A DNA stretch of 64,000 nt from an uncultured Spirochaetota bacterium (GCA_963734495.1 CAVTHK010000007.1:288001-352000); one strand, 5' to 3'. Shown: positions 55,834-63,948, numbered from the stretch's first letter. The notes: a model not told the origin generated them from the sequence alone. Numbers and translations: made by a program.

Positions 55834-56898
55834 TCAATCCCTGACGCGGGCCAGGGCGAGAGCGCGAAGGATCAAGGCGGGCAGCGGCCGTCCGGGATCG
55901 CGGCGGCGGAGGTCGAGGTACAGGCCCAGGCGCTTCGCGATCGGCACCTTGTGTGTCTCGACGAACTCGATGAGCGTGCCGTCGGGATCTTCGATGTAGG
56001 CAAAGTGGCCGGCCGCATCCCCCATCTCGAACGACGAGGAGCTGTCCACGGTGAAGGGGAACCCCGCGGCCGCGCAGCGTTCCCGCAGCTCCGCCATTCC
56101 GCGGATGTCGAAGCAGAGATGGATAAAGCCGAGGTCGCCCCAGTAACGGCCCTCGAAGAGCCGCCGGCCCGGCGCTTCGAGCGGCTGAATGAGCTCGAGA
56201 CGGCTCGAGCCGAACAGGCGGCTGAACGCGCCCCGGCGCGGGGCGGCGTGTCCGAGGAGCACGCGGCGGACCCGCCTGCGCCCGCCGGGGAGGCTCTCCA
56301 GGTCCGCGAACGTACCCTCGCGATCGTAGATCACCGTGTCATAGCCGACGATGTCGCGGTAGACCCGCAGGCTCGATTCCACGCTGCTCACCCCGAGGAC
56401 GCAGCCGCACGGTCCCCCGGTCGGGTGACGGCCTCCCGCGAACCAGTCGCGGCCCTCGACGACCTCGAAGAGCCTGCCCCAGGGGTCGCGCAGGTAGAAG
56501 TGGCGCGAGCCGGCCGGGTCGGGCACGACGTCGGTCAGAAGGTCGGCTCCCCTGCCCGCGAGAAAGGCGCGGGCGGCCGCCACGTCCCTCGCCTTGATGC
56601 GCGCCGCAAGAATGCCCAGGTCGCCGACGCCGGCTTGAGGCGCGAGCGGGCTCGGCTTGCGGCTGGTGTACTGCCAGATCTCGAAGCCGGAGCCGCCCTG
56701 CAGGTTCGCGGCGAGCACCGCGCGCCTCGACTGGACGACTCCGCCGGTGTAGCGGACCATGAACGGGGCTTCGCCGGCGTCATCGAACACCGGGACGTCG
56801 GTGCCGAAGCTGCGGCGGTACCAGCGGAAGGCCTCTTCGAGGTCCGCGACGCCGATGCCGATCTGCTGGATGCCGCTGACGAGGTACCCGGCGGCCAT
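55834..56898 (-). CDS. two-domain VOC (glyoxalase-like) protein
   Basis: IQQIGIGV, FEIWQ, IHLCFD, YIEDPDGTLIEFVE. Confidence 0.87.
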   Translation of the reverse strand: MAAGYLVSGIQQIGIGVADLEEAFRWYRRSFGTDVPVFDDAGEAPFMVRYTGGVVQSRRAVLAANLQGGSGFEIWQYTSRKPSPLAPQAGVGDLGILAARIKARDVAAARAFLAGRGADLLTDVVPDPAGSRHFYLRDPWGRLFEVVEGRDWFAGGRHPTGGPCGCVLGVSSVESSLRVYRDIVGYDTVIYDREGTFADLESLPGGRRRVRRVLLGHAAPRRGAFSRLFGSSRLELIQPLEAPGRRLFEGRYWGDLGFIHLCFDIRGMAELRERCAAAGFPFTVDSSSSFEMGDAAGHFAYIEDPDGTLIEFVETHKVPIAKRLGLYLDLRRRDPGRPLPALILRALALARVRD

Positions 56899-57689
56899 CA
56901 GCGTTTGCGGGGGACCGCGCGGGTGTTGCCGGTCGTGATCCCGCCGTCGACCAGCACCATCTGGCCGTGCACGTAGCGCGACGCGTCGGATGCGAGAAAG
57001 ACCACCGTACCGTCGAGGTCATCCGGCTTGCCGGGCCTGCCGAGCGGGATCTTCTCCACGAGGTACGACACCCACTCCTGGTCTTCGTAGAGGACCTTGT
57101 TCTGCTCCGTGCGGAACCAGCCCGGCGCGAGGCAGTTGACGTTGATCCCGAAGGGCCCCCACTCCGATGCCAGGGCCTTGGTCATCTGCAGCACGCCCCC
57201 GCGGCTCGCGGAATACGGCACGATACCCGCGTAGCCGAAGACGCAGGTGACCGAGCCGATGTTGATGATCTTGCCGTACTTCCTCTCGATCATCCCGGGG
57301 GCGATCGCACGGGCCACGAAGAAGGCGCCCTTGAGGTTGGTGTCGACGACCGCGTCCCAGTCCTCCCAGGTCACGTCCACCGACGCCTTGCGGATGTTGC
57401 ACCCGGCGTTGTTCACGAGGACGTCAACCGCCGGGACGTCGCGCCTCAGCGCGCGGCCGAGCTCCTCGATGCTTTCCTTGACCCTTACGTCCAGCGAGTA
57501 CGCGCGCGCCTGCCGTCCGAGGGCCCTGAGCTCGGCGACGGTGGCGTCGCAGTCCGCGGCGGCGCGCGCAGTCACGACGACGTCGGCGCCGGCGCGCGCC
57601 AGGGCGAGCGCCATGTACCGGCCGAGGCCGCGGCTTCCTCCGGTGACGAGGGCGAGGCGGCCGGAGAGATCGAAGGGGTCAGGGGCCAC
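56898..57689 (-). CDS. SDR oxidoreductase (gluconate 5-dehydrogenase/KduD-like)
   Basis: TGGSRGLG, NNAG, YSASR, NCLAPGWF, FLASDAS.YV.GQ. Confidence 0.87.
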   Translation of the reverse strand: MAPDPFDLSGRLALVTGGSRGLGRYMALALARAGADVVVTARAAADCDATVAELRALGRQARAYSLDVRVKESIEELGRALRRDVPAVDVLVNNAGCNIRKASVDVTWEDWDAVVDTNLKGAFFVARAIAPGMIERKYGKIINIGSVTCVFGYAGIVPYSASRGGVLQMTKALASEWGPFGINVNCLAPGWFRTEQNKVLYEDQEWVSYLVEKIPLGRPGKPDDLDGTVVFLASDASRYVHGQMVLVDGGITTGNTRAVPRKR

Positions 57690-57758
57690 GGGAATCTCCT
57701 TTCGGTGCAGCGGCGGGTACGCCGGGCCACAGCACGGCGGCGGGGCGCGCGCCCGCGA

Positions 57759-58790
57759 TCAGGGCTTGAGGATGACCTTGAAGAGCCGCTCCTTGCCTTC
57801 GTGCAGAAGATGGAACCAGTGCGGCGCCTCCTCGAGCGGAACGACCTTGCTGATGAGGCTCTGTACGTCCAGGCGGCCCGATGCGATCAGGGTGAGGCAG
57901 GCCGGGTACTCGCCCGCGGACGCCACCGTTCCGCGCACGTCGAGCTCCCGCTGCACCACGACCTGGAGCGGGAACTCGCCTTTCGGGGTGAGGTTCCCGA
58001 TCATCACGCACCGGCCCCCCTTGCGGACGCAGCGCACGGCCAGGTCGACGGTCGGCGCGAACCCCACCGCCTCGAGGCTCACGTCCGCGCCTTCGCCCGC
58101 GGTGAGCGCCCGGATCGCTTCGACGGCGTCGGTCTTTTTCGGGTTGATCGCGTGGTCGGCCCCCAGGCGGCGCGCCTCCTCGAGCTTGTAGTCGACGAGG
58201 TCCACCGCGATCACCTGGCCGGCGCCGGCCAGGCGCGCCGCCTGGATCGTCAGCAGGCCGATGATCCCGCAGCCGATGACGACGACGTTGTCGCCGAGGT
58301 GGATGCCCGCGCGCTCGACCGCGTGCACGGCGATCGATACCGGCTCCACCATCGCCGCCTTCTCGAACGCGAGCCCCTCGGGCAGCGGGACCACGATGTG
58401 CTCGGGAACGACGACAAAGTCGGCCATCGCCCCGTCCTGGCGATACTCGTCGCAGGAGACTCCGAGCACCTTGCGGTTCGAGCAGAGGTTGGGCTTGCCC
58501 GTGAGGCAGTAGCGGCAGCGGTTGCAGTAGATCGTCGAGTCGAACGTGATCCGGTCGCCCGGCTTGAAGCGGGTCACCGCGGCGCCGACGGCCTCCACGA
58601 CTCCCGCGGCCTCGTGGCCCATCACGATCGGCGGGATCCGCCGGCCGGTCTGTCCCGTCATGCCGTGGACATCGCTCCCGCAGATGCCGACCGAATCGAC
58701 GCGCACCAGGAGCTCATCGGCCCCGTGCTTCGGGACCGCGCGCTCCTCCATCTGGAACGTGAGGGGTTTCGTGTGGACCAGCGCTTTCAT
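57759..58790 (-). CDS. zinc-dependent polyol/sugar alcohol dehydrogenase (MDR)
   Basis: GICGSD, GHE, CNRCRYC...C structural zinc site, GCGIIG. Confidence 0.9.
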   Translation of the reverse strand: MKALVHTKPLTFQMEERAVPKHGADELLVRVDSVGICGSDVHGMTGQTGRRIPPIVMGHEAAGVVEAVGAAVTRFKPGDRITFDSTIYCNRCRYCLTGKPNLCSNRKVLGVSCDEYRQDGAMADFVVVPEHIVVPLPEGLAFEKAAMVEPVSIAVHAVERAGIHLGDNVVVIGCGIIGLLTIQAARLAGAGQVIAVDLVDYKLEEARRLGADHAINPKKTDAVEAIRALTAGEGADVSLEAVGFAPTVDLAVRCVRKGGRCVMIGNLTPKGEFPLQVVVQRELDVRGTVASAGEYPACLTLIASGRLDVQSLISKVVPLEEAPHWFHLLHEGKERLFKVILKP

Positions 58791-58824
58791 CGCGGGGCAT
58801 TATGAGGCACGCGCCGCCCGCGGG

Positions 58825-60159
58825 TCAATCTTCGAGGATGATGATCTCGACGCGCCGGTTGAGCGCCATGCCCTCGGGCGTGTCGTTGGAGGCAACGGGT
58901 TCGGAGGCCCCGCGCCCTTCGTAGACAAAGCGCCCCGCCTCCAGCCCCGACGCCACGAAGAAGTCGACGACGGCCCTCGCGCGCTCGACCGACAGGGCCT
59001 TCTGACCGGCCTCGGTGCCGGCACGAGCCGTGTGTCCGATGACGCGGAAAGTGCGGCCCTGGATCTTCTTGAGCGCGCGCGCCACCGCCTCAAGGCGCGG
59101 CCTTTCCTCAGGCAGCACGACCGCCTGGTCGGCGACGAAGCGGATGTCGCTGATCTCGAGCTTCACCCCGGCTTCGGTCTCGCTGACCTTGACGCCGGGC
59201 GTGCCGCCCGGTTCGCTCGAAAGGCTGCCGGCCACTTCGCCCGCGCCGCCGCCGGTCTGTCGCTCGCCGCCTCCGGCACCCGGAGACCCGGGACCGGCGC
59301 CGGCGGGCGAGGCTCCGATCCGCGGCGCCGGACGCTCGCGCGCGAGCTCCGGCCCGAGCGCCTTCTTCACGTCCTCGGCGATGAGGCCGCGATCCATGGC
59401 GGCGATGCCTTCGTACCAGGTGAGCATGAAACCCTTGAAGCCCACCGACTTCCCGCCCTCGAGGGCGTACGTCTCGTCCACCATGGTCTCGACAAAGACC
59501 GGCCGGCGGGCGCCTTCATCATAATAAATCTTCGCGGAGTGGCTGCCGCTGATCGACCGTATGCGCGAGTCGCCGAGCGGATCGTCGCCGCCCTTGTAGC
59601 GCAGGGCGTAGCGCGCCGCGACCAGCTGCAGGTTCCGGCCGTTGCGCACGACCGGCCCCTGGTACTCATATCCGGCGTAGATGCGCACCCGCGTGTGCTT
59701 GCCGTCGCGGAACGGCTCCACGACCCGCGCACCGAACGCTTCCCAGCGATCGCGGGGGGCGAGGTCGCGGGTCGGAAAGACCGGGAAGCTGCGCAGGGCG
59801 GGATAGGCCTGGTCCGCGGGCACGTCGTAAGTGCCGTCCGCTCGGATGGAAAACCGCACGGGCACGACGTCGTCGATGCGCTTGGCGACGAGCCTCGAGT
59901 CCCGCCTGGTCTCCTCGAAGACGTAGAACGAGCCCTCGACGTCGGCTCCGCTCTCCGCGCCGCGGACGTCGAGCACGCCACGCACCTCGCGGTACGAGAG
60001 GCCGACGAACTTACCGTCCTCGTAGCGGCGGAGGTCGCTGCGCTCGGTGATCTTGAACTTGTCCCCCGCAGCGTACGCGACCTCGAAACGCACGCCGTCG
60101 GCGGTCATCGGCTGCGCGGCCAGGAGGAGGAAGGCAAGGAGCGCGGCGGCGGACGTCAA
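58825..60159 (-). CDS. OmpA-domain (peptidoglycan-binding) exported protein
   Basis: TTG start overlapping upstream stop; signal-like N-terminus; C-terminal IGHTA...LSVERARAV...NRRVEI. Confidence 0.87.
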   Translation of the reverse strand: MTSAAALLAFLLLAAQPMTADGVRFEVAYAAGDKFKITERSDLRRYEDGKFVGLSYREVRGVLDVRGAESGADVEGSFYVFEETRRDSRLVAKRIDDVVPVRFSIRADGTYDVPADQAYPALRSFPVFPTRDLAPRDRWEAFGARVVEPFRDGKHTRVRIYAGYEYQGPVVRNGRNLQLVAARYALRYKGGDDPLGDSRIRSISGSHSAKIYYDEGARRPVFVETMVDETYALEGGKSVGFKGFMLTWYEGIAAMDRGLIAEDVKKALGPELARERPAPRIGASPAGAGPGSPGAGGGERQTGGGAGEVAGSLSSEPGGTPGVKVSETEAGVKLEISDIRFVADQAVVLPEERPRLEAVARALKKIQGRTFRVIGHTARAGTEAGQKALSVERARAVVDFFVASGLEAGRFVYEGRGASEPVASNDTPEGMALNRRVEIIILED

Positions 60160-61418
60160 CCCGGCGTGATCCCCAGCTTGCGCCCGGCTTCGCCCGCGAT
60201 CTCGAGGATCCGGTCGAGGTCCTGGTCGGTGTGCGTCGCCATGTACGACGTGCGGATCAGGCAGCGGTTCGGCGGCGTGGCGGGAGGCACGACCGGATTG
60301 GTGTACACCCCGCCATCCAGGAACGCGCGCCAGAGCGCAAAGGTCTTGTCCATGGGGCCGACGATCAGGGGGATGATGGGCGTCTCGGCGACGCCGATGT
60401 CGTAGCCGAGATCCTTGAACCCCTTGAGCATCTTGCGGCCGATCGCCTGAAGCCGCTGCACGTGGTGCGGCTCCCGCTCGATGATGTCGAGGCTGGCCAT
60501 CACGGAGGCGATGTTCGCCGGGGGCATGCTTGCGGTAAAGATGAGCGCCCGCGCGAAGTGCTTGATGTAGTCGACGATCATGGCGTCGCCCGCAACGAAC
60601 CCGCCGATGCTGGCGAAGGACTTGGAGAACGTGCACATCAGCAGGTCCGTGAGGCGCTTGTCGCCGTAGTGCTCCGTGGTGCCGCGGCCCGTCTTGCCGA
60701 TCGTGCCGATCGCGTGCGCCTCGTCGAGGTACACGGCGGCGCCGTGCTTTTCCGCCAGCGCCTTGAGCTCCGGCAGCTTGACGATGTCGCCCTCCATGCT
60801 GAAGACGCCGTCGGTCACGATCAGGATGGGCTCCCCCTGCGTGATGCCTTCGAGTTGCTGCTCCAGGTCCTCCATGTTGTTGTGCTTGTAGCGGTGCATC
60901 TTGACGTCCCGGTTCAGCCCCACGCTCAGGAGGATGCCGTCCACGATCGAGGCATGGTTGTACCGGTCGGTCATCACGTGCTCCTGCTTGCCGAGCAGGG
61001 CCTGGATGGAGCCGAGGTTGGTCTGGTAGCCCGTGGTAAAGCAGAGCGCCGCCTCGCGGCCGACGAACGCGGCGAGCCTGGCCTCGAGCTCCTCATGCAG
61101 CGTGAGGGTCCCGTTGATGAACCGCGATCCCGAGCAGCTCGTGCCGTGCTCGGCGATGGCCCGGCGCGCCGCCTCGATCACGCGCGGGTCGTGGGCCAGC
61201 CCGAGGTAGTTGTTCGACCCCGCCATGACCAGATCCCGGCCGCCCATGACCACGTGGCTGCCGTGGTTCTCCTGGATCGGGCGGAAGAACGGGTAGATGC
61301 CGGCTTCGCGCGCGTCGCGCGCGTCGGTGAAGTTGTAGCACTTCGCGAAGACGTAGGGCTGGCCGGCAGGCTTCCTGACGTGAGTCTTCTCGCGCACCGC
61401 TGTCTTCCTGGGCGTCAT
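60156..61418 (-). CDS. spt: serine palmitoyltransferase-like alpha-oxoamine synthase (PLP)
   Basis: GIYPFFR, GSNNYLGL, GSRFINGTL, NHASIVDG, DEAH, PLP lysine motif TFSKSFASIGGF. Confidence 0.75.
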   Translation of the reverse strand: MTPRKTAVREKTHVRKPAGQPYVFAKCYNFTDARDAREAGIYPFFRPIQENHGSHVVMGGRDLVMAGSNNYLGLAHDPRVIEAARRAIAEHGTSCSGSRFINGTLTLHEELEARLAAFVGREAALCFTTGYQTNLGSIQALLGKQEHVMTDRYNHASIVDGILLSVGLNRDVKMHRYKHNNMEDLEQQLEGITQGEPILIVTDGVFSMEGDIVKLPELKALAEKHGAAVYLDEAHAIGTIGKTGRGTTEHYGDKRLTDLLMCTFSKSFASIGGFVAGDAMIVDYIKHFARALIFTASMPPANIASVMASLDIIEREPHHVQRLQAIGRKMLKGFKDLGYDIGVAETPIIPLIVGPMDKTFALWRAFLDGGVYTNPVVPPATPPNRCLIRTSYMATHTDQDLDRILEIAGEAGRKLGITPG

Positions 61419-62248
61419 CTGGAGATCTCCTTGGCTTTTCGTTTGCGCGCCTTTCCCGCGTCGGAATCCATGACGGCGTAGACGAGGCGAGGCGCTATTC
61501 TGTGGACGAAATCGGTGAGCCGGCTCATGAAACCGCAGAACACGAAGGTGCGGTTCCCGCGCAGGCCGCGGATCAGGGAGCGGGCGACCTGCTCCGGGCT
61601 GTAGGTCCCCGCCGTCCCCTCGACCGCGTGCGTTTCGGCGGGCTTGTTGACGTTCTCCCGGTCGAGCCCGGGCGTGGCCGTGTTCGGCGGGCAGAGCACC
61701 ACCACGCGGATCTTCCACGGGGCGAGCTCGTTGCGGAGGGCCTCCGAAAATCCCACCACGCCGAACTTGGTGGCGCAGTACGCGGTCGCGCCGAAGTAGC
61801 CGACGAGGCCGCCGACGGACGCCACGTTCACGATCGTGCCGCCGCCCCGGGCTTTCATGTGCGGGAGGACAGCGCGGACGGTGTGGAAGCAGCCGAAAAG
61901 GTTGGTCGCGGTCATGTCGCGCAGGTGGGCTTCGGTCACGTTCTCGAAATAGTCGATATAGGCGAAACCCGCGTTGTTGACGAGCAGGTCGGGAGCCCCG
62001 ACGTCCCGGACGAGGCCGTCGAGGACGCGGCTCACCGCGGCGGGGTCGGCCACGTCGCAGGCGGCCCCCACGACCCGCTGCCCCTCGGAGAGCCGCAGGG
62101 ACTGCAGGTGCGCCGCCGCGGCATCGAGCCGCGAGCGGTCGCGCGCGATGATTGCCACGCTGGCGCCCGTCCGGACGAGCTCGGTAGCGACCGCGAAGCC
62201 GATGCCGCTCGACCCGCCGGTCACATAGCAAGTCTTGAACTCTCTCAA
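61415..62248 (-). CDS. SDR oxidoreductase, 3-ketodihydrosphingosine reductase (KDSR/Tsc10)-like
   Basis: TGGSSGIG, YCATK, and PPNTATPGLDRENVNKPAET...SPEQVA segment. Confidence 0.72.
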   Translation of the reverse strand: MREFKTCYVTGGSSGIGFAVATELVRTGASVAIIARDRSRLDAAAAHLQSLRLSEGQRVVGAACDVADPAAVSRVLDGLVRDVGAPDLLVNNAGFAYIDYFENVTEAHLRDMTATNLFGCFHTVRAVLPHMKARGGGTIVNVASVGGLVGYFGATAYCATKFGVVGFSEALRNELAPWKIRVVVLCPPNTATPGLDRENVNKPAETHAVEGTAGTYSPEQVARSLIRGLRGNRTFVFCGFMSRLTDFVHRIAPRLVYAVMDSDAGKARKRKAKEISR

Positions 62249-62297
62249 TTATCCCCGCCTGCGTAGCCGTCCGGGCGCGACCCGGCGAAGTCCGTGA

Positions 62298-62326
62298 AGC
62301 GTACAATCTATGCCCCACGCTGTCAA
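62298..62326 (-). promoter_or_regulatory. possible sigma70 promoter of SDR-spt-ompA unit
   Basis: TTGACA-N17-TACGCT on the minus strand about 50 nt upstream of the SDR start. Confidence 0.55.
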
Positions 62327-62451
62327 GTTTTGGGCAGCGGCGTGGCAGCCGCGTGGGCAGCCGCGTTTCGAGGCGCCGGGCGCCCCCCGCCGTGTCGCCG
62401 GCGCGAACAGTCGCTTGCAGTCCCCGAGGCGTTTCGGTACCTTCTTCTCGT

Positions 62452-63948
62452 ATGGCCCGCAAGGTCTACCAGTTCAACATGGGCCACGTTCGCACGCGGC
62501 TTGTCGACACGCTCAAGAGCCGGCGCGAGGGTGCCACCATCGCCGACCTCGTCGCGGCCACCGGCCTCCCCGCGGTGCAGGTGCAGCAGGGCATCCGCGA
62601 GGTCGCGGACGAATACGACGGGCACCTGCGCGTCACCGAATCGGGCGAGGTCCTCTACCACTTCCCCAACGGGATGCGCAGCCGCAAGCGCGGCGCGGCC
62701 GCCGTCGCCAGGCGCGTTGTGGGACGGGCGGCGAAAGCGACCGGCCGGGTCCTCAAGTGGCTCTTCAAGGCCTGGATCACGGTCATGCTCGTCGGCTACT
62801 TCGCCCTGTTCGTCGCGATCGTCGTTCTCGCGGCCCTCGCGTCGATGGCCATGTCGGCGGCGAGCCGCAGCGACGGCCGCAGGGACGGCGGAGGGGGCGG
62901 CTTCTTTTCCTTCTACCTCGCCGCCAGGATGTTCGAGCTGTTCCTCTGGCTCTGGTTCGCGCGCGGCCCGCGCGCGACGCGCTCGCGGGGCAGGCCTCTG
63001 CGCCAGTCCGTCTTTGCGTACGTGTTCGGGGAGCCGGACCCGAACGCGCGTTGGGAGGAGACCGAGCGCCGAGCGATCGTGCACTTCCTGCGCTCGAACA
63101 AGGGGCTGATCACCGCGGAGGAGCTGATGGCGCTCACAGGTGCATCGCCCGAAGAGGCTCAAGCGAAGATCAACCGTCTCCTCCTCGAGCTCGAGGGCGA
63201 GCCGGAAGTCACGGACGAGGGGACGATCGTCTTCAGGTTCGAAAACCTCCTCCGCAGCCGCGCCGAAGAGCTGCGCGCCGAGAGCCGCGAGCGGCTGCCG
63301 CACAAGCGCCTCGTCCCGTTCAACCGGAACGAGCGCTCGCGAAACGGCTGGATCACCGTCTTCAATCTGGCGAACGCCGGCTTCGGCACCTATTTCGCCG
63401 CGCTGGCGGCGGCCAAACCGACGGAGGTCTTCACGACGCTCGCGAACGGGACGCGGCTGACGCAGATCGACGGCGCATACCTGTACCACTTCGTGATCAG
63501 AGCGGCGACGGCGCTCGGCGCCCTGAAGCCCGAGTCCCTCATATACGTCGCGCTCGGCGTCGTGCCGCTGACGTTCTCCGCGTTCTTCTTCCTGGTGCCC
63601 TTCGTCAGGCGCCTGCGCGAACGGGCCGCCAACGAGGCGACGCGCCGCGAGAACCTGCGCAGGCTCGTCTACGCCCGCGTGCTCGCCGACCCGACGCTCG
63701 TCGACCCCCGCGACATCCGGCCGACCGCCCCCGAGGAAACCACGCGCAACGCGCAGGCCGATGTCGAGCGCCTGCTCAAGGAGCTCGCCGCGACCCGCGG
63801 CGGGGAGCCCGTACAGGCGGCCGACGGCGCGTGGGTCTGGCGTTTCCCGGAGCTCGAGCGCGAGCGACAGGACGTCGAGCGCACGAGGATCGCCACCAGC
63901 ACAGCGCAGTACGACGTCGGCGGGACGGTGTTCGACTCGGACAGTTAG
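62452..63948 (+). CDS. hypothetical membrane protein with wHTH-like repeats
   Basis: ATG at 62452; ATIADLVAATGL...GHLRVTESGEVLYHFP, a second copy GEPEVTDEGTIVFRF, several TM segments. Confidence 0.8.
   Translation: MARKVYQFNMGHVRTRLVDTLKSRREGATIADLVAATGLPAVQVQQGIREVADEYDGHLRVTESGEVLYHFPNGMRSRKRGAAAVARRVVGRAAKATGRVLKWLFKAWITVMLVGYFALFVAIVVLAALASMAMSAASRSDGRRDGGGGGFFSFYLAARMFELFLWLWFARGPRATRSRGRPLRQSVFAYVFGEPDPNARWEETERRAIVHFLRSNKGLITAEELMALTGASPEEAQAKINRLLLELEGEPEVTDEGTIVFRFENLLRSRAEELRAESRERLPHKRLVPFNRNERSRNGWITVFNLANAGFGTYFAALAAAKPTEVFTTLANGTRLTQIDGAYLYHFVIRAATALGALKPESLIYVALGVVPLTFSAFFFLVPFVRRLRERAANEATRRENLRRLVYARVLADPTLVDPRDIRPTAPEETTRNAQADVERLLKELAATRGGEPVQAADGAWVWRFPELERERQDVERTRIATSTAQYDVGGTVFDSDS

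Follow-up and report, generated by a model that had tools for sequence, protein, structure and literature searches.

The stretch of DNA analysed here, termed the window, spans 64,000 nucleotides from an uncultured Spirochaetota bacterium and carries an overlapping gene pair followed by a third, co-oriented gene. The relevant features, with positions counted from the first letter of the window, are as follows:

62298-62326, minus strand: candidate promoter, found by eye (TTGACA 62326-62321, 17-nt spacer, TACGCT 62303-62298)
61415-62248, minus strand: classical SDR, 277 aa, TTG start; proposed 3-keto reductase of a sphingoid-base pathway
61415-61418, minus strand: ATGA overlap of the SDR stop (TGA) with the synthase ATG; TCAT on the plus strand
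60156-61418, minus strand: PLP α-oxoamine synthase resembling serine palmitoyltransferase (SPT), 420 aa, ATG start
58825-60159, minus strand: gene for an OmpA-domain protein, 444 aa, TTG start, co-oriented with the pair

The ORF reading places both genes of the pair on the minus strand, with the SDR running from 62248 to 61415 and the synthase (gene Spt) from 61418 to 60156—bearing out the overlapping pair and the ATGA at 61415-61418 described in the first-pass annotation. This overlap of stop and start codons suggests translational coupling, and the ORF coordinates of four other loci (L023, L029, L030 and L034) reveal a similar 4-nt SDR/Spt overlap. The synthase stop codon in turn overlaps the TTG start of the third gene (TTGA, 60156-60159), the product of which combines a signal-peptide-like N-terminus with a C-terminal OmpA peptidoglycan-binding domain. 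This third gene is probably co-transcribed with SDR and Spt here; its product had zero homologues across 80 related loci at E≤1e-5, and the gene is outside the conserved SDR-Spt module. The σ70-like promoter claimed upstream of the SDR was missed by a σ70 consensus scan of positions 58600-62600, which returned a single match (58828-58799, before a different gene) and no site upstream of the SDR; the candidate found by eye has a perfect -35 element (TTGACA) but a weak -10 element (TACGCT, 3/6 against TATAAT). Contigs from four sequencing runs were fragments, mostly with 88-97% likeness to the window, and the best run contained at most 0.16 of the sampled words. A soil RNA-library run, in which DNA may be present, yielded short contigs that cover portions of Spt (60609-61151) as well as the 5' end of the SDR gene (62069-62276).

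The synthase matched Aminotran_1_2 in Pfam (169.6 bits), and its top NCBIfam model was SerpalmtaseCFB (NF047600, the SPT of Bacteroidota; 487.5 bits)—ahead of BioF by 127 bits, with scores of 362.7 for SPT-beta, 360.7 for BioF, 335.9 for Kbl, 231.8 for ALAS and 214.1 for the CqsA-type model. The protein nonetheless scored under every SPT equivalog cut-off (NF047600, 487.5 vs 640; NF047599, 362.7 vs 500; NF047603, 295.8 vs 670), and five Spt homologues adjoining bCerS or CerR genes in other phyla likewise missed the 640 cut-off, at 503-571 bits; the Bacteroides (700.5) and Parabacteroides (683.8) enzymes exceeded it. The synthase was also under the cut-offs for Kbl (335.9 vs 460 and 282.2 vs 493) and BioF (360.7 vs 426.45), and a separate, true Kbl is encoded elsewhere in the genome (599.5 bits, above the 493 cut-off). 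Two further models considered as possible ceramide-pathway models, NF047601 and NF047602, turned out to be MscS channel models. Among the sequences of solved structures, the best match was the SPT of Sphingobacterium multivorum (390 bits), with Sphingomonas-type SPT at 257-266 bits, Kbl at 247.8, cysteate acyltransferase at 223.9, BioF at 206.9 and CqsA at 124.5.

All four synthase motifs quoted in the first-pass annotation are present in the translation, i.e., GIYPFFR (residues 40-46), GSRFINGT (97-104), NHASIVDG (154-161) and TFSKSFASIGG (263-273), the last containing the PLP lysine K266 (codon 60621-60623), the aligned counterpart of Lys244 in S. multivorum SPT. Sixteen active-site residues have been named for the latter enzyme (PMC10196870), and 14 of these are identical in the alignment with the synthase (N69, Y71, G97, S98, F100, H155, S207, D232, A234, H235, T263, S265, K266 and F294). 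The two that differ are A79, replaced by S96, and M271, replaced by I293; according to the same source, M271 makes its contact via the main chain, and A79 touches the substrate side chain through water. Ser or Thr occupies position 96 in 75 of the 81 rows of the bCerS/CerR-linked Spt clade. Moreover, residues 378-382 read PPATP, a loop motif described as SPT-specific (PMC3794620) that is found in Sphingomonas SPT, whereas S. multivorum SPT has SPAVP. At positions 98, 102, 265 and 380, the synthase carries S, N, S and A, where Kbl carries V, C, G and V.

Phylogenetic placement by quick maximum-likelihood trees with SH-aLRT support pointed in the same direction. The reference set comprised the BioF and Kbl of E. 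coli, plus sequences of Bacteroidales, Roseomonas, Bacillales and Ralstonia that were taken from plasmid-labelled records and verified by model score. In an 84-row tree, a split with an SH-aLRT of 99 set the 81 Spt-like rows apart from the BioF and Kbl of E. coli and from the Kbl encoded in this genome; the synthase of the window fell within a 48-row spirochaete clade (SH-aLRT 99). In a 56-row tree, the Bacteroides finegoldii, Parabacteroides distasonis and Roseomonas SPTs shared the side of the window synthase in a 98-supported split from five BioF/Kbl rows; these Bacteroidales and Roseomonas references owe their SPT label to model score (B. finegoldii, 700.5 and P. distasonis, 683.8, cut-off 640; Roseomonas, 639.2, cut-off 500). 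The trees hence group the synthase with model-verified SPTs and away from BioF and Kbl (98-99), with characterised SPTs, ALAS, CqsA and cysteate acyltransferase lying outside the reference set. The orthologue in a named, cultured organism, Spirochaeta thermophila DSM 6578, is 64% identical. Since model scores, solved-structure sequences, active-site residues, trees and the gene neighbourhood of relatives all agree, the assignment of the PLP enzyme as nearer to bacterial SPT than to BioF, Kbl, ALAS, CqsA or cysteate acyltransferase is supported, in keeping with the SPT-like character that had been proposed for it.

The partner protein matched adh_short in Pfam (184.6 bits) and has the hallmarks of a classical SDR: it carries a Gly-rich dinucleotide motif (TGGSSGIG, residues 10-17), NNAG (91-94) and the catalytic residues Ser144 and Tyr157/Lys161, the last two within YCATK. 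Because the Rossmann motif begins at residue 10, there is no room for a signal peptide, and the enzyme is predicted to be cytoplasmic for this reason. The first-pass annotation had called the protein KDSR-like. A sequence search of the PDB failed to set KDSR apart from the remaining SDRs: TSC10 (8jat) ranked 14th with 97.3 bits, and the top match was a hydroxybutyrate dehydrogenase (110.3 bits). Automatic names, which serve as leads only, read 3-dehydrosphinganine reductase for 17 of 23 JGI-named homologues and for the two top Atlas clusters. The alternative that this SDR is CerR itself, an NDUFA9-like extended SDR of ~330 aa, was rejected, as the protein matches adh_short and not Epimerase and clusters apart from the CerR-like genes; the CerR-like Spt neighbours at other loci match PF01370. 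What does support a role as the 3-keto reductase of the pathway is the conserved position next to Spt, often with a 4-nt overlap, in several lineages of spirochaetes, together with the bCerS-SDR-Spt operons described below; that part of the earlier proposal stands, and the specific KDSR identity is putative.

To place the pair in its genomic context, we examined the synteny of 80 related loci (47 from spirochaetes and 33 from other organisms) and a sample of 400 Spirochaetota genomes. Of the 47 spirochaete loci, 18 have the SDR gene immediately upstream of Spt, as against none of the 33 others; the same arrangement was found in genomes G030, G094, G230, G183 and G258. At the non-spirochaete Spt loci, a bCerS-like GNAT gene occurs within 7 kb in 30 of 33 cases and a CerR-like epimerase-family gene in 16 of 33, and in two spirochaete loci (L022 and L027) bCerS and CerR both adjoin Spt. 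Three lineages, represented by L013, G183 and G258, carry bCerS, SDR and Spt in a row. Across the phylum, 64 of the 400 genomes gave an Spt-like match scoring 383 bits or more; the SDR (E≤1e-38) was present in 21 of these, a CerR-like gene (E≤1e-35) in 13, both in none and neither in 30, a zero overlap that is not a statistical test, given surveys with single-protein queries in related genomes. The sensitivity of the CerR search is limited, its query being one protein with identities of 30-37%. In the genome of the window, the best CerR-like tblastn match reached ~100 bits, with nothing at E≤1e-35. A search for ceramide synthase in the same genome recovered four bCerS-like GNAT paralogues, all unlinked to the pair; whichever of the Spt-linked bCerS queries was used, C13:52657-53781 came out as the best match among them (summed 162-312 bits). 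All four are split over two or three reading frames. As the essential gene PPDK is split likewise, assembly indels are the likely cause, and pseudogenes are possible. Finally, a single bCerS query found no match in the SDR-Spt genomes G030, G094 and G230, where the product may be other than a ceramide.

From these features, it appears probable that SDR and Spt form a sphingoid-base module, in which SPT acts first and the SDR then reduces free 3-ketosphinganine before N-acylation. We infer the substrates, the order of steps, the final lipid and its location from the sequences: the PLP enzyme would be a soluble, homodimer-type SPT of the bacterial kind, forming 3-ketosphinganine by condensation of L-serine and a long-chain acyl thioester, and the translationally coupled SDR would use NAD(P)H to reduce the 3-keto group in the cytoplasm. 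The SDR substrate would most likely be free 3-ketosphinganine, yielding sphinganine, in the order of eukaryotes and Bacteroides. One of the four unlinked bCerS-like GNATs—with C13:52657-53781 as the best candidate—would then N-acylate the base to ceramide. In these spirochaetes, the SDR would stand in for the NDUFA9-like reductase CerR that belongs to the canonical bacterial cluster.

The order of the last two steps could be reversed, such that bCerS N-acylates 3-ketosphinganine and the SDR reduces the resulting oxo-ceramide as a cytoplasmic replacement for CerR in a Caulobacter-type order. The published bacterial model indeed has acylation before reduction (PMC11087976), and both the mutual exclusion of SDR and CerR-like genes in the sample and the bCerS-SDR-Spt operons would fit. 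We consider this unlikely all the same: CerR is reported to be periplasmic, as opposed to an SDR without a signal peptide; the automatic names, as leads, favour the KDSR family; and reduction of the free base is the better fit for G030, G094 and G230, since no bCerS-like match accompanies SDR-Spt there. Alternatively, the synthase could build a sphingoid-like base on an amino acid other than serine, be it alanine or glycine (1-deoxy bases), cysteate (sulfonolipid/capnine-type) or yet another, with the SDR reducing the keto-amine; the lipid would then be sphingolipid-like and not derived from sphinganine. Cysteate pathways likewise pair an α-oxoamine synthase with a reductase, the synthase scores under the SPT equivalog cut-off, and Ser at position 96 replaces the Ala with a water-mediated side-chain contact. 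Abundant 1-deoxy and other unusual sphingolipids have been reported from anaerobic bacteria (PMC11334938). Against this option, which we regard as improbable, the 14 conserved SPT residues include N69, which helps to keep the hydroxyl of serine in place, as well as the backbone position S265; Ser or Thr at position 96 is the rule across the bCerS/CerR-linked clade; and the solved cysteate acyltransferase falls well behind SPT as a match (223.9 vs 390 bits), and cysteate enzymes are described as a separate clade whose pocket has been remodelled (PMC13692747).

It is very improbable that the product of the pair is a small amino- or hydroxy-ketone serving as a signal or secondary metabolite, in the manner of CqsA/LqsA or PigH, in place of a membrane lipid: one homologue cluster bears the source name 'PigH' and autoinducer synthases do occur within the α-oxoamine synthase family, but the CqsA-type model and the solved CqsA score far below SPT (214.1 vs 487.5, and 124.5 bits), the synthase clade is associated with bCerS and CerR genes, and its distribution within a phylum-wide clade is wide and vertical. 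We give next to no credence to a housekeeping Kbl or BioF misread as SPT, a reading prompted by the JGI automatic name '8-amino-7-oxononanoate synthase' of homologues and by a Zn-dependent dehydrogenase gene 1.4 kb downstream, and opposed by the sub-cut-off scores for both models, the true Kbl elsewhere, the tree split and the four residues that differ from Kbl. That dehydrogenase, which has a promoter-like site of its own, was itself rejected as a threonine dehydrogenase partner (218.1 bits vs a cut-off of 380).

Returning to the sphingoid-base module, the pair, judged by sequence, most likely encodes the enzymes for the two opening steps of sphingolipid synthesis, a pathway not experimentally documented in Spirochaetota. 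An outer-membrane role for the lipid is speculation that fits the absence of LpxA, LpxB and LpxC matches in this genome; such matches are also absent in a complete-genome family carrying the same pair. A more far-reaching idea, which we think doubtful, holds that in lipid-A-less Spirochaetia the coupled, cytoplasmic KDSR-type SDR-Spt pair displaced the periplasmic CerR, with reduction first and acylation later or never, and that sphingolipids replace outer-membrane LPS. Pair carriers without detectable bCerS would, under that displaced-CerR idea, contain free or otherwise modified long-chain bases. In Sphingomonas, sphingolipids serve as outer-membrane lipids in place of LPS.

Spt-like genes in one further phylum are no surprise in themselves: a 2024 survey inferred them in 38 phyla of one water column and 40 in all (PMC11334938), such that the novelty attached to spirochaete sphingolipid genes in the first-pass annotation was overstated. 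Spirochaetes are unnamed in the main text of that survey, its supplements may list Spirochaetota, and our literature search returned no report on spirochaete sphingolipids, Spt, bCerS or ceramide polar lipids of Spirochaeta. If the proposal is true, free-living spirochaetes, several of which lack lipid A genes and one of which is S. thermophila DSM 6578, would join the sphingolipid producers, with a bearing on the outer-leaflet content of diderm envelopes devoid of LPS. The coupling of SDR and Spt touches, in addition, an open dispute on whether the long-chain base is reduced before or after N-acylation in bacteria, as it joins to Spt a reductase that lacks an export signal and never occurs with CerR-like genes in the sampled genomes.

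Like S. multivorum SPT (3a2b/8guh; NF047600), with which it shares roughly half of its residues across 378 aligned positions, the synthase is a stand-alone enzyme of ~400 aa; unlike it, the synthase has a 20-residue basic N-terminal extension, and it belongs to a phylum-wide spirochaete clade of its own. With Kbl and BioF it shares the fold-type I α-oxoamine synthase superfamily, the PLP lysine and overall length, but differs in model scores, clade and substrate-pocket residues. The SDR has in common with yeast TSC10, human FVT1 and BT_0972 of Bacteroides thetaiotaomicron (PMC9278070) the classical SDR fold class, the Gly-rich NAD(P) motif and YxxxK. Its genomic coupling to Spt implies a shared step with these KDSRs, although solved TSC10 is no closer to it than unrelated SDRs. 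BT_0972 is presumably not adjacent to the Bacteroides spt gene, whereas SDR and Spt overlap in the window. Finally, members of the same Spt clade adjoin bCerS- and CerR-like genes in other loci, as in the Caulobacter-type Spt-bCerS-CerR cluster (PMC11087976); here, by contrast, Spt is coupled to a classical SDR that lacks a signal peptide, no CerR-like gene was found at E≤1e-35 and bCerS is unlinked.

The two genes singled out by the first-pass annotation as a candidate sphinganine biosynthesis pair, a short-chain dehydrogenase/reductase (SDR) and an alpha-oxoamine synthase (Spt), have intact reading frames in the window and are followed by a third, co-oriented gene.

Gene pair and flanking features in the window, from ORF reading
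62326-62321, minus strand: perfect TTGACA, then a 17-nt spacer and TACGCT, upstream of the SDR
62248 (TTG start) to 61415-61417 (TGA stop), minus strand: SDR, 277 aa
61418 (ATG start) to 60156-60158 (stop), minus strand: synthase, 420 aa
58825-60159, minus strand: 444-aa protein, OmpA domain at the C-terminus; the TTG start and the synthase stop overlap in TTGA

The SDR stop and the synthase start overlap as originally described, in a coding-strand ATGA that reads TCAT on the plus strand (61415-61418). All four motifs quoted for the PLP enzyme were located in the 420-aa protein—GIYPFFR (residues 40-46), GSRFINGT (97-104), NHASIVDG (154-161) and TFSKSFASIGG (263-273). Pfam assigned the SDR to adh_short (184.6 bits) and the synthase to Aminotran_1_2 (169.6 bits). 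The sole element of the earlier description that failed was a sigma70-like promoter upstream of the SDR: a consensus scan of positions 58600-62600 returned no site there, where the TTGACA/TACGCT arrangement is all that stands. The only sigma-70-like site of the scanned region (58828-58799) precedes a downstream minus-strand unit (55834-58790), separate from the pair, that encodes a Zn-dependent polyol-type dehydrogenase, a gluconate-5-dehydrogenase-like SDR and a tandem glyoxalase-fold protein. The OmpA-domain protein has a signal-peptide-like N-terminus followed by ~320 residues matching no family; its link to Spt is lineage-specific, since no homologue was found near Spt in any of 80 related loci. 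A divergently transcribed gene (62452-63948, plus strand) encodes a 498-aa protein that falls in no NCBIfam family and shows just a weak transmembrane match of the PspC type; at the related locus L005, a homologue with 47% identity is encoded ~4 kb away from Spt.

Relatives of Spt were collected by scanning a single genome for each species, which gave 594 confirmed relatives. The best 80 were analysed, comprising 47 Spirochaetota loci (L005-L051, 57-70% identity) and 33 loci (L052-L084, 48-53% identity) from Myxococcota, Elusimicrobiota, Eisenbacteria, Balneolota, Rhodothermota, Bacteroidota and others. All ORFs within 7 kb were clustered and representatives annotated. Two neighbours recurred. 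One, of ~377 aa, carries a GNAT domain at its C-terminus, as the bacterial ceramide synthase (bCerS) would; the other, of ~327 aa, belongs to the NAD-dependent epimerase family, as would the ceramide reductase (CerR) of the canonical Spt-bCerS-CerR cluster. Within this best-80 set, a bCerS-like gene lay within 7 kb in 30 of the 33 non-spirochaete loci and a CerR-like gene in 16, with an SDR of the window's type directly upstream of Spt in none. The corresponding counts for the 47 spirochaete loci were four (L013, L018, L022 and L027), two (L022 and L027) and 18. These 18 SDRs share the strand of Spt and are 35-47% identical to that of the window; at 25 spirochaete loci at least 850 nt upstream of Spt was present without a window-type SDR, and four were too short to tell. 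SDR and CerR occurred together in none of the best 80 loci. The gene order at L013 is bCerS-SDR-Spt, and the 4-nt overlap of SDR and Spt seen in the window recurs at L023, L029, L030 and L034.

We also queried 400 genomes sampled from the phylum with single proteins; given such queries and the relatedness of these genomes, the outcome is read as a pattern rather than a test. An Spt-like match scoring 383 bits or more (45-64% identity) was found in 64 genomes, an SDR match (E ≤ 1e-38) in 69 and a CerR-like match (E ≤ 1e-35) in 22. At these thresholds, the 64 Spt-like genomes included 21 with the SDR, 13 with a CerR-like match, 30 with neither and none with both; indeed, no genome of the 400 combined an SDR with a CerR-like match. 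Large families resembling host-associated lineages had no Spt-like match, or just Kbl-like matches at 36-37% identity (0/75 genomes in family f20, 0/38 in f25 and 0/8 in f5). The pair itself, which the first-pass annotation had suggested looking for across Spirochaetota, was recovered with the SDR directly upstream of Spt in genomes G030, G094, G230, G183 and G258. Both G183 and G258 carry bCerS-SDR-Spt in a row; G030, G094 and G230, which are 99-100% complete, gave no bCerS-like match with the one query used, and in G030 the pair is isolated, flanked by TRAP-transporter genes and a chorismate-mutase-like gene. Spirochaeta thermophila DSM 6578, a species that is both named and in culture, also has an orthologue of the synthase (P0111, 64% identity); no bCerS-like match came from complete genomes of its kind. 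A different arrangement was seen at L094 (G208:C56:65000-79000) and in ~14 genomes of family f41, another spirochaete family. There the gene after that of an AMP-binding acyl-activating enzyme encodes an alpha-oxoamine synthase with 39-42% identity to that of the window, and a divergently oriented SDR paralogue (37-40%) lies ~3.5 kb away; this cluster may represent a separate long-chain-base-type pathway.

A genome-wide tblastn search of the host assembly with Spt-linked bCerS queries took up the accompanying question of a ceramide synthase, returning four bCerS-like GNAT paralogues (C13:52657-53781, C9:253072-254204, C13:399065-400199 and C11:269152-270247). The first was the top match for every bCerS query (summed 162-312 bits), also when the query came from a bCerS-SDR-Spt operon. 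Each of the four is broken up across two or three frames, as a result of either assembly error or pseudogene formation. Assembly error is the likelier cause, because the pyruvate phosphate dikinase gene just past the window end (C7, about 353900-356700) is likewise split, over three frames. The assembly (5.38 Mb, 18 contigs, 68% G+C; the window is C7:288001-352000) thus probably carries indel errors, the alternative being genuinely broken genes; such errors would also fit a completeness of 83% in just 18 contigs. Its relatives among the collected genomes place the assembly in class Spirochaetia of Spirochaetota. No CerR-like gene was found in this genome with a single-protein query, the best tblastn match reaching about 100 bits and nothing passing E ≤ 1e-35.

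The SDR displays the motifs of a classical SDR (TGGSSGIG at residues 10-17, NNAG at 91-94, S144 and Y157/K161). Comparison with solved structures did not establish kinship to characterised 3-ketosphinganine reductase (KDSR), with TSC10 ranking 14th at 97.3 bits and a hydroxybutyrate dehydrogenase scoring 110.3. The automatic label '3-dehydrosphinganine reductase', borne by 17 of 23 JGI-named homologues and by both of the closest Atlas clusters that have a name, is consistent with a KDSR function but serves as a lead only. We propose that the SDR is the 3-keto reductase of the pathway, mainly because its coupling to Spt and bCerS is conserved and it is complementary to CerR. Spt would join serine to a long-chain acyl thioester, forming 3-ketosphinganine; the cytoplasmic SDR coupled to it would reduce the 3-keto group, and a bCerS-like acyltransferase would N-acylate the base. 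A live rival is that the SDR is an analogue of CerR, with reduction following acylation—an order with which the bCerS-SDR-Spt rows would also be compatible. Reduction of the free base is nevertheless favoured, because the SDR has no signal peptide and some genomes with the SDR-Spt pair have no detectable bCerS.

A second rival is that the synthase uses a substrate other than serine. It reached none of the NCBIfam curated cut-offs, its top model being the Bacteroidota-type serine palmitoyltransferase (SPT) NF047600 (487.5 bits, against the 640 needed). However, five Spt homologues with bCerS as a neighbour, and in some cases CerR too (L013, where the SDR is present as well, L022, L052, L073 and L061), and that of L058 score 503-571 bits, so the value in the window is typical of the wider Spt clade and gives no sign of a different function. 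When the active-site residues of Sphingobacterium multivorum SPT named in PMC10196870 were mapped through pairwise and 84-row alignments, 14 of 16 were identical. The differences were Ala79 to Ser96 and Met271 to Ile293, and Met271 is described there as a main-chain contact. The loop motif PPATP, a conserved SPT motif according to PMC3794620, occupies residues 378-382.

A Kbl or BioF function is unlikely. After NF047600, the models score in the order SPT-beta (362.7 bits), BioF (360.7), Kbl (335.9), SPT-alpha (295.8) and ALAS (231.8). Among solved structures, S. multivorum SPT scores 390 bits and Sphingomonas-type SPTs 257-266, followed by Kbl (247.8), cysteate-C-fatty acyltransferase (223.9) and BioF (206.9). 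Positions 98/102/265/380 read S,N,S,A in the synthase, V,C,G,V in the two Kbl sequences and S,S,G,T in E. coli BioF. The host genome also encodes a bona fide Kbl (C1:104284-105552; L086:4284-5552, minus strand; 599.5 bits, cut-off 493), and Kbl function is therefore already covered; this gene adjoins an enolase-superfamily sugar-acid dehydratase rather than threonine dehydrogenase. An autoinducer-type function is likewise unlikely, the CqsA-type model scoring 214.1 bits.

Quick IQ-TREE phylogenies with SH-aLRT were anchored by E. coli BioF and Kbl, by cut-off-passing sequences from plasmid-labelled public records and by gene neighbourhood. The SPT references were Bacteroides finegoldii (700.5 bits) and Parabacteroides distasonis (683.8) for SPT-CFB and Roseomonas (639.2), with an ACP gene directly upstream, for SPT-beta; a Bacillales BioF (478.3) and a Ralstonia Kbl (709.9) completed the set. 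In an 84-row tree, 81 Spt-like proteins separated from the BioF/Kbl rows (SH-aLRT 99), and the 47 Spirochaetota proteins and that of the window formed a single clade (SH-aLRT 99). A 56-row tree with named references set five BioF/Kbl rows apart from 51 rows (SH-aLRT 98) that hold the Bacteroidales and Roseomonas SPTs and a 28-row spirochaete clade (support 100). Of the phylogeny envisaged in the first-pass annotation, these trees cover BioF, Kbl and SPTs verified by model score, with ALAS, CqsA and cysteate acyltransferases outside the rows. Model scores, solved structures, pocket residues and trees agree that the enzyme is more SPT-like than BioF- or Kbl-like, as first read. Two reference records filed as 'plasmids', L095 (NZ_OY725929.1, Bacteroides) and L096 (NZ_OY725812.1, Parabacteroides), contain housekeeping aspS and lon and look like chromosomal pieces; in both, the SPT gene lies beside a diacylglycerol-kinase-family gene.

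The LpxC, LpxB and LpxA models found nothing above cut-off in the host genome, G030 or G230; the bCerS-SDR-Spt carriers G183 and G258 have true LpxC, LpxB and LpxA genes. Diderms naturally without lipid A include spirochaetes such as Borrelia and Treponema as well as Sphingomonas, which bears sphingolipids on its surface (PMC9393093). Given these precedents and the missing Lpx matches, an outer-membrane role for the lipids of the SDR-Spt pair is plausible by analogy.

The view that sphingolipid synthesis would be new to spirochaetes stands insofar as our search of a literature collection found no paper linking them to Spt, bCerS or sphingolipid synthesis. It is tempered by PMC11334938, in which MAGs of 38 phyla are inferred to encode Spt-like proteins, for 40 phyla in all, and many of these are reported to lie apart from bCerS or CerR; its main text does not mention spirochaetes, though its supplements may list them. 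The variant feature that deserves attention is the apparent coupling of a KDSR-type SDR to Spt in place of CerR: whereas CerR of Caulobacter is reported to be periplasmic (PMC11087976), the SDR of the window carries no signal peptide.
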